Virus record (IMG/VR): IMGVR_UViG_2563366912_000005
Direction: 5' to 3' (one strand)
Length of the DNA: 31,816 nucleotides
Source of the DNA: a virus
Lineage: Duplodnaviria > Heunggongvirae > Uroviricota > Caudoviricetes
Positions 11,769 to 27,066 of this stretch are shown here, in pieces. The first letter of the stretch is position 1. Each line of letters opens with the position of its first letter. The position numbers and the translations under genes were made by a program. The notes below the pieces were generated by a model. That model was not told where the DNA came from. It saw nothing but the letters and a program-made list of their open reading frames with translations, and made no database searches.

Positions 11769-12039
11769 GATGTTACCGTAGTATGTGAGTATCCATCGAA
11801 TAGATACCAAGCAAAAAAGCTCCCGAAGGAGCCTTCATTTTCACTTTTTTAAATCCAACGACAGACGGCTGGCATTTAAGTATTGTGAAATATTATCAAA
11901 TGTAATCATCATTGATTTACAAAAGATACATTTTGCCCCGAAAGGATTCATGTCAGAAACATCAAAAGATGATGTTCTATACTGGGAACCATGACAACAC
12001 GGGCATCTAAAGTGAATATGGTTTGTAATATTGTCTACC

Positions 12040-12252
12040 TCAAAGCGCCACTACATGAACAGCGGCAGGACCTTTAGGTCCGTTCTCAATACCAAATTCA
12101 ACTTCCTGATTCTCAGTTAATGTTTTGAAATCGTTGCTCTGAATTGCTGAGAAATGGACAAACACATCTTTGCTGCCATCTTTCGGCGTGATGAAACCAA
12201 AACCTTTTTCAGGGTTAAACCATTTCACTAAACCAGTCATTTTGTTAGACAT
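12040..12252 (-). CDS. cspI: Cold-shock protein CspI-like
   Basis: [42 protein letters not shown]... cold-shock domain with RNP motifs; long AT-rich 5' leader upstream. Confidence 0.9.
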
Positions 12253-12614
12253 AATTATTACCTTTTGAAGAAATTAGCCCTTGGGCAGAATGGTCCGAAA
12301 AAAAATATCAGAGAGAAAAACCAACAAGGAAATCTCAAGAGGTACAAATAATAAAATTATAACAATGACTGCTTCAGATAAATTTGTAACAAACCAGAAC
12401 ACCATTAACGCATGATTAACCACCCATAGCAAGGATTACTTTTGTAAAGAAAAACACAGCAATGAAAGAATAGCTTTATTTATTAATAAAACGTGTCATT
12501 CTGATTAAGACCTTTTATCTTACCCTTAAGATTTCAGGAATTTTGGCTCATGGAAGAGTCCTTTTTATTTAAATTTTACATTCCGCGATGTAAATGTTCC
12601 GATTTAATATTACC

Positions 12615-14646: not shown

Positions 14647-14924
14647 ATTGTGGTGCTTTTTGTGGGAGTCATCCACTTACGCACTTTGTTTTGCGATGCC
14701 AGCAGTTAGCTTCTGCTGTGAAACTATTCATGCAGCAAACCTGCACTTCACCACAATGGTTAGCATACTTTTCCTGATTAAGATTTTGCCAAATATGCTA
14801 GCCATTGTTTCATGTATTGGACCTCCTTACTTTTTATTAAAGAGATCCAATATTCACTACTCTGTCCGTATCTCTACTCAGGCATCAGCCTTCTTCGTTA
14901 TCGTATACAGACGAGCGATGAATT

Positions 14925-15140
14925 TTAATCAGTAATGATGACATTTGCTGCTGCAGGACCTTTAGCACCACTCTCTATAGAGAAGGTAACCTTTTGACCT
15001 TCAAATAAGGTTCGATAATTATCATTCTGAATCGCAGAAAAATGCACAAACACATCTTTACTACCATCAACAGGAGAAATAAAGCCGAAACCTTTATCAG
15101 CGTTAAACCATTTTACTAAACCAGTCATTTTATTTGACAT
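14925..15140 (-). CDS. cspB: Cold-shock protein CspB-like
   Basis: [53 protein letters not shown]...; about 300 nt of AT-rich leader upstream. Confidence 0.9.
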
Positions 15141-15438
15141 TCTACATTCCTTAACTTGAGCCTTTCGGCATAAATGGTTTGCATAACAGAAACGACTTCG
15201 TACTTAATTGGAGAGACTCAAAGAAGGAATAAGTGAATAACACCTGAAATGAGAACTGCTTTAGTAAACTACTTCGTATATCGTCTGTTCTTCAAACCGA
15301 CGCAGTCATTAACTCATAGTTGAACATATGAAGCAATGTTTATTTTAGACATCCAGCCACCTTCAATCCTATCAAAAAAGTAGTTTTCTCCAGGAACGTG
15401 TGTATGGTGCACCAGGTTATCAGTATTAAGGAGTTTTT

Positions 15439-15815: not shown

Positions 15816-16568
15816 TTATCTCGTCACCTTCCTCAATTGCGCTTCCGCGTATGCTTCTTCCTGCCAGCACTTTGTTACCAGTTTACCAATGACGTCCGCA
15901 TACCCCTTATACCACTGATAATCGGTCAGGTCTGGTACCAGCTTCTGGACATGACGTCGTGCCAGCGTGGTCGGTAAACGACTAAACCGGTTTCCATTAC
16001 AACGCCCACAAATCTTATATACCGGTACGCCATGAAACCGGGTTCTTTTTTCATCCAGAACAATCCCTTTACCCTTACACCCTCTGCACGCTGTGCTGAC
16101 TTCGCCCTTACCATGGCAATGCTGACATAGTTCCTTCACCCATTCTTCCTTGATTACAGATTCCCCGCGTCTGTAGTGTTTCACCACTTCGCGCAATACA
16201 TTATAAAATCCCGTACCTGAACAATGCTCACAGCGAGCCTTACTTGCCGCAGACCTGGAGTAATCAGCAAAGGCAAAATTCACGAGGTAAGGAATAATCT
16301 GTAACCGGATTTCTTCACTCAATTTGTTCAATGTCGGGTTATCCAGTGCCATCGCGTAATTTAGCAGGCCTTCAATCGCAAACTGAGCGTCCTGAACACC
16401 AACTTTTGCCAGAAATAAGGCCAACCCAAGTGGTGCTTTCGACTGCACCATCCCCTGCGCTGCCATTACATCCGTAATTGTTAAACAACCGGTGCCTGTC
16501 GCTGGAGCGTCATCGCTCAATTTTGGAGATTTTGGGGAGTAATATTTTGGTAAGGCTTCAAGGTTCAT
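15816..16568 (-). CDS. Late-gene antiterminator Q-like protein
   Basis: 250 aa from [12 protein letters not shown] with GGAG ribosome-binding site; Cys-rich zinc-binding region ([30 protein letters not shown]). Confidence 0.75.
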
Positions 16569-16581
16569 GCTCGTTCTCCAC

Positions 16582-17508
16582 TTACGCCAGTACGCCAATT
16601 GCCAGCGCGCGATCGATAAAACGAAATATCAGCTCCAGTTGGGAGCCATACTTCTCTTCAAATGCCACTGTATCCGTATGCAGCTCGTTGTGATGCTTTC
16701 TGCACAAAGGCAACACAAAGAGATCATGTGCTTTTGTTCCCATTCCGCCCTGCCCGTGACCAATCAGATGATGCGGATCGTCGGCTGGCATACCGCAGCA
16801 AGCACACGGCTGTGTCTTAACCCAACGTGTGTATTTCTCCTTAACCCAGCGGCGACGTTTAGGCAGCTTCATGAAAGATTCCGGAGACTCTGGATCAACG
16901 GTGATGCTTACCACCGTCTTTTCCTGTGGTGTTTTTTGTTGCTGGTGGGCGTAAGGCAACGGTGCAAGATTTTTTGTGCGTTGTTTCAATATGCTGGTGG
17001 CGGTCTGCTCTCCCGGTACGATGTCGCTTTCGCGGTACACCGAGCAGATTTTTTCCGCTGGTAATCCCAGCGAACGACGCGATACAGCCTCAGGTAGTGC
17101 ATCCACCACCTGATTGCAGACCGCCCACCAGGATAATTCAGCCAAAGATAATTCCCGCTCCTGCGTACCGCTTATTGCGTGACGGATGACGTCAATCACC
17201 CATGCTGTCAGATTTTGTTGAGCAAGCAGCTCCAGTGATTCCGATGTCTGGTCACGCAGTTGGTTGTCGCAGTGCCAACACAACACCATTGCGCCGGTAC
17301 CATAACGGTGAATGACTGTTTCAGAGTGATGGTAATCGCCATTAGGCCACTGGCAGGATGTAACATGACGTAATAGCCAGTCAGACAATGCGCCAACACC
17401 GCCAGCAGCACGAATCACCCGTTCGTTACTAAAAAACGGCAGCAATGTTTTGTCTTCCGCCAGCGACTGGCGAACGGCAGGAACGACTCCGGATGGCAGA
17501 TTACGCAT
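16582..17508 (-). CDS. ydfU: DUF968-family protein (YdfU-like) with C-terminal HNH-like Cys/His motif
   Basis: C-terminus CACCGMPADDPHHLIGHGQGG...CRKHHNELH; start set at MRNLPSGV (308 aa); a GTG at 17670 would overlap the upstream gene. Confidence 0.55.
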   Translation of the reverse strand: MRNLPSGVVPAVRQSLAEDKTLLPFFSNERVIRAAGGVGALSDWLLRHVTSCQWPNGDYHHSETVIHRYGTGAMVLCWHCDNQLRDQTSESLELLAQQNLTAWVIDVIRHAISGTQERELSLAELSWWAVCNQVVDALPEAVSRRSLGLPAEKICSVYRESDIVPGEQTATSILKQRTKNLAPLPYAHQQQKTPQEKTVVSITVDPESPESFMKLPKRRRWVKEKYTRWVKTQPCACCGMPADDPHHLIGHGQGGMGTKAHDLFVLPLCRKHHNELHTDTVAFEEKYGSQLELIFRFIDRALAIGVLA

Positions 17509-17632
17509 GCTTTTTGGTTCCGGTTCCACCAGCACTCGAGGATTATGAAATATCTGTATGGATTCACGGCCCGGCTTAAGGACCACCAGCCCAAGCTCAG
17601 GCACCAGAACAGGTCTAAGTAATACCCGCACG

Positions 17633-17911
17633 TTACCTCCAGATCCGTTGCTGGAAAGTGCGGGACGCACGTGGTGGGCGTTCGGAGTAAGGCAATCTGA
17701 CTGAGATTATCCAGTGACGGTAGTCGAGGCTAAGGGCTTTCTTAACCTCGTATCCGCGCCTGCGGTAACACTGAATTATCCATTCAGCCTGCTCTTCAGT
17801 GCATGGAGGGTGTTGGAACCATTCAGACTTGAATGCGTGAGAATACCGCTCGTGCGTGCAGACAAGAACGGGCGAATTATCAGAATTGTAATATTTTACG
17901 TTGCGTGCCAT
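17633..17911 (-). CDS. Small prophage protein at the position of rem in Qin
   Basis: 92-aa ORF MARNVKYYNSDNSPVLVCTHERY...; assigned by position only. Confidence 0.45.
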   Translation of the reverse strand: MARNVKYYNSDNSPVLVCTHERYSHAFKSEWFQHPPCTEEQAEWIIQCYRRRGYEVKKALSLDYRHWIISVRLPYSERPPRASRTFQQRIWR

Positions 17912-17977
17912 CGGTTTTCTCCGGTGGCACGGTGTTACTCAGCGGGAGTTCAGCCCCGCGCAAGATTGTAGATGAGT

Positions 17978-18229
17978 TTATTCTTCTGCAAAAGCTAAAA
18001 AGCCTGCTTTTATTCCGATCTCTTTCAGTGCCTGTAATGAAGTGACAAACTCACCTTCGCGCAAGATAAATCCGTCTGTCACTCGACCATCCACAAAATT
18101 AATTAACGCAGCCCCATTCTTTCGCAAACACATAATGCGGTAATGACTAACAAGATTTCCATTTTCAACGCACACAGCATAGAGGCCATCTTCACAAAAA
18201 ATTTTACGCAATTCTTCGATGTTCATCAT
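17978..18229 (-). CDS. Hypothetical 83-aa protein
   Basis: Intact ORF between the rem-position gene and the hokD terminator; no family recognised. Confidence 0.4.
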   Translation of the reverse strand: MMNIEELRKIFCEDGLYAVCVENGNLVSHYRIMCLRKNGAALINFVDGRVTDGFILREGEFVTSLQALKEIGIKAGFLAFAEE

Positions 18230-18344
18230 CAGAATCCTTCCGGATAATTAGCTCTCCCCTTTAAGGGACCATCCCTCTTATCCCTGCGCGCTACTTAAGT
18301 ATTTTTGATTCTATTCCGGCACCGTCCAGAACTTCAAACGCGTT

Positions 18345-18378
18345 GAAAATAAAAACAAAAACCCGCCGAAGCGGGTTA
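18345..18378 (-). terminator. Rho-independent terminator of the hok transcript
   Basis: Minus strand aacccgc-ttcg-gcgggtt followed by tttgtttttatttt. Confidence 0.55.
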
Positions 18379-18445
18379 AGTGCGGGTGCGTTGAGGATGC
18401 CTGCCACATCAGAGGTGGCGAGGGATTTCTCCCTCGCCGGGTTTC

Positions 18446-18601
18446 TTACTCCTCAGGTTCGTAAGCTGTGAAGACAGCGACCTCCGTCTGGCCGGTTCGG
18501 ATTCGTACCTCGCAGAGGTCTTTCCTCGTTACCAGTGCCGTCACTATGACGGTTAAACAGATGACGATCAGGGCGATTAACATCGCCTTTTGCTGCTTCA
18601 T
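18446..18601 (-). CDS. hokD: Hok/Gef-family type I toxin, HokD-like
   Basis: MKQQKAMLIALIVICLTVIVTALVTRKDLCEVRIRTGQTEVAVFTAYEPEE (51 aa), a single transmembrane helix plus conserved Hok periplasmic tail; hairpins flank the gene. Confidence 0.85.
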   Translation of the reverse strand: MKQQKAMLIALIVICLTVIVTALVTRKDLCEVRIRTGQTEVAVFTAYEPEE

Positions 18602-19275
18602 AGCCTGCTTCTCCTTGCCTTTCGGCACGTAAGAGGCTAACCTACATATGTCTAGCATGAAATTGGCCTCAGATTAATGTTAAGCGTCTTGCAGGACGCG
18701 TAATGTTAACTGGGGCTTTTCTCTATCTGCCGTTGGTGTTCATGCCCGAGGCAGATAGCCTCAAGCACCCGCAGCCATTCTACTTAACTACCGTTACCTC
18801 GCCAATGTGAAATCAGTCAGAAAGGCGATCCATAAGAACAATAGCAAGACAATAAATCGCCATTACAGCCGTAATAGCCAGCGCACATTTGAGAACCAGC
18901 ACCACAACCTCCTGTATTGGACGTAGACCAGTCCTGATGAATATGAGGCTGTCTCGTCAGTGATTCAATACAACTATTGGGTATAGTTTCTCTGATTTTT
19001 TCTGTGGAAATGGGGCACAACCACTAGTCACCACCAGCACTTCTTTTAATACGCAAAGTCCGACACAAGCTAACCTTCTAGTCCGCTTTGAGCGAAAAAC
19101 AGCCATAATTTAGTGCCACGTATATAATGATAGAGCTATTCAAGCTAGCAATTCACATGTAAAAATTCAGAGGGTAGAAGCACATAGTTATAAATGTTGG
19201 CTCCATCGACAAATTGCGGTCTCAAGTACATTTATTAATGTTGCCCCCGCATTAACAAATCATCAAGGTGACGAC

Positions 19276-22876
<3,601 letters not shown>

Positions 22877-27007: not shown

Positions 27008-27066
27008 TTTTCTGGTGACGTTTGGCGGTATCAGTTTTACTCCGTGACTGCTCTGCCGCCGTTTTT
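27008..27066 (+). ncRNA. dicF: DicF small regulatory RNA
   Basis: tttctggtgacgtttggcggtatcagttttactccgtgactgctctgccgccgttttt matches the DicF sequence as recalled, with terminal hairpin and T-run. Confidence 0.8.

Follow-up and report, generated by a model that had tools for sequence, protein, structure and literature searches.

The hok/sok (parB) system of plasmid R1, the mechanism of which has been published as a pathway, and its Escherichia coli K-12 counterparts hokC/mokC/sokC and hokB/mokB/sokB are assembled from the same parts in the same order, namely a promoter, the tac stem at the 5′ end of the mRNA, the start of the mok reading frame, the antisense RNA Sok, the toxin Hok, a 3′ hairpin, a fold-back inhibition (fbi) element and a terminator. 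A further hok gene of K-12, hokD (relF), belongs to the relB-relE-hokD set of the Qin prophage. Two other kinds of small membrane protein bear on what follows: the type I toxins TisB, ZorO and ShoB, of about 29 amino acids, each with a single hydrophobic helix and one end that is polar or charged, and the products of prophage "moron" genes, exemplified by the superinfection exclusion protein gp15 of HK97, a small membrane protein expressed in lysogens. Here we examine a stretch of 31,816 nucleotides (the window) from a virus of the Caudoviricetes, IMG/VR record IMGVR_UViG_2563366912_000005. This window is a lambdoid prophage that occupies the Qin position in E. coli, and in it a hok locus with the R1 set of parts in the R1 order lies next to a 29-codon frame that we call orf29 (18813..18902; like hok, on the minus strand). 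We consider it likely that the region is made up of two independent units, a hok/mok/sok cassette and orf29, together with the gene rem.

That the two units are independent follows from the occurrence of each without the other. Prophage Sp4 of Sakai has kept hok/sok intact and has lost orf29 except for its last ~9 codons, and orf29 is found intact without hok on the invasion plasmids of Shigella (pINV) and in prophages of the type labeled L006 in our set. This set comprises 133 loci: 120 IMG/VR contigs, six E. coli chromosomal or phage records, six contigs from genome collections (E. albertii, E. ruysiae, Shigella and three metagenome-assembled genomes with unlikely binning) and the window itself. 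The three metagenome-assembled genomes, labeled Collinsella, Scatousia and Haemophilus (L129, L130 and L132), are short contigs with an Escherichia prophage module and most likely represent binning errors. At ~114 of the 133 loci the hok leader lies directly downstream of orf29, with no terminator between the two, as would suit a cooperation in which the peptide modulates Hok, or in which the promoter of orf29 gives a longer hok mRNA that alters the tac/fbi switch. We regard such cooperation as very improbable in view of Sp4, pINV and the L006-type prophages, and descent of these loci from one common segment of prophage backbone can account for the linkage.

The hok/mok/sok cassette and its K-12 counterpart

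Judged by its sequence anatomy, the locus is a complete and ordinary hok/mok/sok type I toxin–antitoxin cassette. The toxin gene hokD is intact, as originally proposed: its coding sequence (CDS) of 51 amino acids (18446..18601, −), named hokD by the Prokaryotic Genome Annotation Pipeline (PGAP), gives a product 100% identical to K-12 HokD that matches the Pfam family HOK_GEF (PF01848) with 81.6 bits against a cut-off of 22. The mok reading frame in the list of open reading frames (ORFs) has 70 codons from ATG 18658 (18446..18658, −) and shares the frame of hok, as is the case for K-12 mokC, the annotated start of which maps to 18658; it matches the PHROG "MokW-like host killing" with 113 bits. 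Transcription is predicted to start from the promoter TTGGCG-17-TAGAAT (18777..18805, −; 9/12 in the promoter scan), the −10 hexamer of which ends at 18777 and which is kept in all hok-linked relatives. The full-length hok mRNA of ~416–422 nt (18352..18773, −) would run from a start near 18770, placed by the beginning of the Rfam match, the −10 hexamer and the minimum free energy (MFE) fold, to the T-run of the terminator. The Rfam match in question, to RF01794 (sok/hok-leader), covers 18596..18770 on the hok-sense strand with 112.7 bits against a gathering score of 59 and ends at the hok AUG.

The GC-rich hairpin, the downstream terminator and the upstream inverted repeat (18723..18758) listed in the original prediction are all present where it placed them, and they belong to the hok mRNA. 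The repeat is enclosed by the 5′ leader stem-loop (18712..18769, −), an inverted repeat with arms at 18712–18731 and 18750–18769, and both the Rfam alignment and the MFE fold show these arms paired. The hairpin, with a perfect 9-bp stem, lies directly 3′ of the hok stop (18416..18439, −), and the intrinsic terminator (18350..18377, −), detected by the terminator scan, consists of AACCCGCTTCGGCGGGTT at 18377..18360 followed by a T-run. Between hairpin and terminator lies the fbi element (18381..18396, −), complementary to the 5′ end of the mRNA (tac, ~18759..18773); the two share a perfect 9-nt inverted repeat (18381–18389 and 18765–18773, 375 nt apart), and their pairing is longer in the MFE structure. 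Folding the 422-nt transcript closes its 5′ end onto its 3′ end, with the first ~15 nt paired with the 3′ region, at an MFE of −175.8 kcal/mol (z = −7.25 versus shuffles).

By homology and structure, a Sok antisense gene is present opposite the mok start region. The annotation of K-12 sokC and sokB lands on 18650/18651..18726 on the plus strand, and the hokC start lands on 18601 in the leader alignment with hokC and hokB, giving a Sok gene of ~77 nt (18650..18726, +). Folding of the segment gives a strong stem-loop with a U-run behind it (−30.5 kcal/mol, z = −5.4 versus shuffles), and compared with K-12 sokC and sokB this stem-loop has an insertion of ~18–21 nt. A candidate Sok promoter, TTGCCT-17-TAACCT (18615..18643, +), can be read 7 nt upstream of the mapped Sok start and falls below the threshold of the promoter scan. 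The Sok-like antisense RNA foreseen in the original prediction therefore has a gene here, but it belongs to hok and not to orf29.

If the R1 pathway is carried over to this anatomy, the weak promoter at 18805..18777 would make a hok mRNA of ~420 nt that is kept closed to translation by pairing of the 5′ tac with the 3′ fbi. The message would be opened by slow trimming of its 3′ end as far as the GC hairpin (18416..18439); by analogy to R1 hok mRNA, this hairpin is probably the stop point for the trimming that removes fbi, and ~361 nt would remain. Translation of mok from ATG 18658 would then drive Hok synthesis, and the short-lived Sok RNA (18650..18726, +) would block the mok start. Loss of the prophage or shut-off of its transcription would let Hok depolarize the membrane. 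Post-segregational killing by the prophage cassette is putative, being proposed by analogy, and a point against it is that chromosomal hok loci did not mediate such killing, as stated in the passage of a preprint that summarizes earlier work (10.1101/2025.08.07.668861).

The comparison with K-12 Qin indicates where the two prophages part. Window positions 16001..18615 align with Qin without gaps at 98.2% identity, and past 18615 K-12 has relE and then relB where the window has the hok leader, the mok start and sok. The two elements share the prophage position, the flanks ydfT, ydfU, the 92-amino-acid ORF and rem, an identical HokD, fbi and the terminator, but K-12 Qin is without the hok promoter, tac leader, mok start and sok, and the window is without relBE, ydfV and flxA: RelE, RelB, YdfV and FlxA of K-12 have no tblastn match anywhere in it at E ≤ 1e-3. 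Because homology ends 14 nt ahead of the hok ATG, exactly where relE/relB begin, K-12 hokD is, on this sequence comparison, a truncated derivative in which relBE took the place of the RNA control region and not of the cargo gene. The absence of relBE from the window had thus been recognized correctly, as had the opposite-strand cargo gene (variable among prophages) beyond hok, but the two had been equated in position, whereas the K-12 relBE site corresponds to the hok leader, sok and the mok start. From R1 and the K-12 hokC and hokB loci, with which its leader can be aligned, the cassette differs in its location, the early-right region of a lambdoid prophage, and in having an activity that is predicted.

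The 29-codon frame orf29

orf29 opens with GTG 18902, runs through 29 sense codons and closes with TGA (18815..18813, −); its product, (M)LVLKCALAITAVMAIYCLAIVLMDRLSD, has one predicted transmembrane helix at residues 6–24. The ribosome-binding site (RBS) AGGAGG (18908..18913, −) stands 5 nt before the GTG and is kept in all intact versions of the gene. Among relatives only GTG 18902 is conserved as a start, an extra in-frame GTG at 18905 not being kept. RBS, spacing, start codon and frame are those of the original prediction, as is the single hydrophobic helix at the level of prediction. Upstream lies a candidate sigma-70 promoter, TTGAAT-17-CATATT (18940..18968, −), both hexamers and the 17-nt spacing of which are conserved, also in divergent copies (L006, L007, L013 and pINV) that differ in the sequence of the spacer. 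We propose that orf29 is a gene for a single-pass inner-membrane peptide of 29 amino acids with its own RBS, and that it probably has a weak sigma-70 promoter of its own and would also be read from the phage early-right operon. Only 8 nt separate its stop codon from the hok −35 hexamer (18813..18805) and no terminator stands between, so that transcripts through orf29 would become 5′-extended hok mRNAs.

That orf29 is a true protein-coding gene appears highly likely from the way it varies. The 133 loci contain 83 distinct module sequences and 26 distinct versions of orf29. Of these versions 25 are intact, and in the remaining one (L114), which is frameshifted, the −35, −10 and RBS are degraded as well. 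Variable sites number 30 of 90 in orf29 versus 74 of 89, 101 of 104 and 34 of 47 in the flanks, and those in orf29 are distributed 7/5/18 over the three codon positions (p = 0.0025). The ratio of nonsynonymous to synonymous polymorphism (pN/pS) is 0.26 in frame versus 0.9–1.3 in the other sense frames, and indels occur in the flanks with none in orf29. The conservation in related prophages on which the original prediction had made its small frame depend is therefore borne out, with purifying selection added to it.

Several observations weigh against a coding gene with a promoter of its own. The search pattern for most loci demanded an intact C-terminal half, and the first 14 codons, which the pattern left unconstrained, give a weaker signal (5/2/12, p = 0.007). 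One antisense frame also has a low pN/pS (0.32), as is expected from shared third positions, and this frame is not open. Most copies of orf29 are at least 90% identical, so that part of the conservation reflects recent common ancestry. The candidate promoter scores 8/12, below the threshold of the scan. A lack of mapped transcription start sites (TSSs) on pINV counts for little, because the region concerned is known to be silenced by H-NS. The differential RNA sequencing table of S. flexneri M90T lists no TSS at the equivalent pWR100 site (PMC7132871 Table S3), and the nearest ones on the same strand are 91318, 321 nt upstream of the start of the ORF, and 90726/90709 for icsP (PMC7132871).

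Together with the closeness of the stop codon to the hok −35 hexamer, this relatedness of most copies, the missing TSS and the lack of RefSeq annotation in nearly all genomes listed are what one would expect of an untranslated frame, conserved by recent ancestry or for a role as DNA or RNA, for example as part of the hok promoter on its upstream side or as extra 5′ sequence of the hok transcript. We hold this to be quite improbable. The variation has a three-base periodicity that spares second positions, which account for only 1 of 21 differences between the window and pINV; the frame is open at 76–77% identity in L006 and on pINV, where the hok leader has decayed or is missing; the RBS is conserved and so is the start codon, the GTG being replaced by ATG on pINV; and the flanks gather indels that orf29 does not.

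Other candidate features of the region were considered and set aside. We attribute to chance a terminator-like match inside orf29 (18878..18859) and two short inverted repeats, I6 and I9. Two minus-strand ORFs further upstream, of 49 (18957..19106) and 67 amino acids (18817..19020), are not genes, being broken by one-base indels among relatives. The plus-strand ORFs annotated over the region (Sakai ECs_1079, a RAST call on pWR100 and CDS 48/49 of phage HannyBb) lie in a frame with a pN/pS of 0.91. ECs_1079, a call of 45 amino acids on the opposite strand of Sp4 (L135, 1933..2070), overlaps the hok leader and the orf29 remnant and is probably spurious, because its frame is without coding constraint.

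The gene is widespread and almost always unlabeled. A block of ~325 nt upstream of hok (18771..~19100) is ~90% conserved in thousands of E. coli genomes, none of which, among those listed, has an annotated feature under it. Among 5426 complete E. coli genomes, 1833 carry the unit from promoter to stop at a coverage of at least 80%; the unit also occurs in the four isolated phages mEp460_ev081, Evi, Tritos and HannyBb and on 124 Shigella plasmid records. On pCP301 and pWR100 it lies ~290 nt upstream of icsP/sopA in the same orientation, 76–77% identical and intact with an ATG start (MLVLKGTLAIAAVMTIYCLIVVLMERFSD), so that the well-studied regulatory region upstream of icsP holds a small gene derived from a prophage. 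This copy (NC_004851.1, pCP301, ~219851–220014; L138, 1513–1795; CP037924, 90908..90997, complement) keeps AGGAGG and a promoter-like TTGAGT-17-CATATT, and its differences from the window are distributed 10/1/10 over codon positions with a pN/pS of 0.28; the adjoining hok leader is decayed and cut off, and hok is gone. Prokka calls the pWR100 copy as CP037924_00134, and database copies of the peptide are labeled only "hypothetical protein" or "membrane protein". Upstream of the unit, ~130 nt of non-coding DNA (18970..19100) is conserved in most prophage copies and shows no preserved ORF and no RNA-structure signal; it borders a variable cargo slot that, depending on the prophage, holds a DUF4209 gene, TPR and DUF262 genes, queH or others.

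Candidate roles for the orf29 peptide

Searches place the peptide in no described family. Pfam, NCBIfam, PHROGs and PADLOC contain nothing that matches it, and an exhaustive HMMER search of 1.84 billion representatives returned nine matches, all 83–100% identical, with no relative below 83%. A word-indexed search gave 37 matches, those with a named organism all being from Escherichia save one recorded as "MULTISPECIES [Enterobacteriaceae]", and a full-text literature search for the peptide sequence gave no match. YnfS, another Qin peptide of 29 amino acids from K-12, was considered as its identity and is unrelated in sequence.

The original prediction had likened the peptide to type I toxins, and the likeness extends to its size and its hydrophobicity. 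At 29 amino acids, with a hydropathy of 2.58 over the 19 residues 6–24 (2.50 for TisB) and a charged C-terminus, it would fit a membrane-damaging toxin like TisB, ZorO and ShoB, held under an unrecognized small RNA and forming two toxin modules in tandem with hok. That orf29 adjoins another type I system, is under purifying selection and in most prophage copies is preceded by the ~130 nt of conserved non-coding DNA would agree with such an arrangement. However, the peptide shares no sequence similarity with these toxins, the toxicity of which it could only putatively have, and the gene has neither a detectable antitoxin RNA gene nor a long structured 5′ untranslated region. The scans reveal no antisense promoter or terminator on the plus strand across or beside orf29, Rfam gives no match besides sok even at E ≤ 10, and the folds of the putative mRNA and of both strands of 18906..19105 are like those of shuffles (z −0.6 to +0.8). 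The best upstream complementarity to the start region, searched by eye, is only ~7 nt. The minimal unit common to intact copies extends from the −35 to 12 nt past the stop, too short a stretch to contain an antitoxin gene as well. L006, L007, L013 and L059 lack the block upstream of the −35, and pINV lacks part of it; as all of them have kept orf29, this block cannot hold an obligatory antitoxin. A strong RBS, a short leader and no visible repressor fit a tolerated protein better. A weak or trans-encoded antitoxin RNA would be compatible with these computations, and we rate a type I toxin of this kind as unlikely.

We judge a small membrane-acting accessory protein to be more likely than a classical type I toxin, and propose that orf29 would be an autonomous accessory gene of the moron kind that stands outside the hok switch. 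As with the morons typified by HK97 gp15, a short gene for a membrane protein lies within a phage operon, has a putative promoter to itself and adjoins a variable cargo site; orf29 differs in having a single helix and 29 amino acids, in its lack of homology and in its lack of a terminator of its own. A more far-reaching suggestion, which we put forward only tentatively and consider rather unlikely, is that orf29 founds a family of phage-borne membrane-active peptides restricted to Escherichia and Shigella, acting either as a toxin without antisense control in cis or as a modulator of the envelope or of phage entry, and kept upstream of icsP because it is useful there.

Neighboring genes and the place of orf29 in the prophage

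In genomes 100% identical to the window over 17600..19400, PGAP gives the gene order cspI, rzpQ, rrrQ, essD, cspB, ydfT, ydfU, a 92-amino-acid hypothetical, rem and hokD, with ydfT annotated as the Q antiterminator, followed beyond hokD by a DUF4209/DUF7380 gene on the opposite strand, replication and immunity genes, DicF and dicB. At least 80% of this segment is held by 765 of 5426 complete E. coli genomes, and ATCC 25922 is one strain in which the hok and orf29 locus is identical. The 83-amino-acid ORF next to hokD (17978..18229, −), which had been left unassigned, is rem itself: 79 of its 83 residues (95%) are identical to K-12 Rem (b1561), whose gene holds the same place in Qin, its PGAP name is "protein Rem", and it belongs to phrog_340. 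The gene that had been put at the rem position is a separate conserved hypothetical of 92 amino acids between rem and ydfU (17633..17911, −; phrog_1212, 121.9 bits; hypothetical according to PGAP). The same ORF is annotated as hypothetical in many genomes and is intact yet unannotated in K-12 MG1655 (L002, 3307..3585).

The cargo gene beyond orf29 (19276..20937, +) carries DUF7380/DUF4209 domain matches and is a candidate defense gene by its PADLOC match (PDC-S39, 302 bits). An IS21-family element (istA 21004..22026, istB 22023..22805) cuts into it close to the 3′ end, at ~20918; uninterrupted, as in ATCC 25922 and strain 190, the gene encodes 595 amino acids. Elsewhere in the window, Rfam matches mark the small RNA DicF (27010..27061, +) and, upstream of cspB and cspI, the cold-shock genes of the prophage, leaders of the cspA thermoregulator type (14909..15301 and 12013..12398, −), all of which are expected features of a Qin-type prophage.

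Taken as a whole, the original prediction had correctly spotted what is mostly a known system, had mislabeled one gene, rem, and had come upon one real if small result, orf29. The hok part, the value of which is one of bookkeeping only, presents the ancestral, complete form of hokD, next to which the K-12 relBE-hokD operon appears as a derived fusion without the RNA control region. By its sequence record, orf29 is a conserved and selected, largely unannotated membrane-peptide gene, a modestly interesting orphan that roughly one in three complete E. coli genomes carries, as do the invasion plasmids of Shigella, and that RefSeq almost always skips. If expressed in lysogens, it would join the prophage small proteins that act on the host membrane, and in Shigella it would be an unrecognized gene inside the heavily studied upstream regulatory region of icsP.

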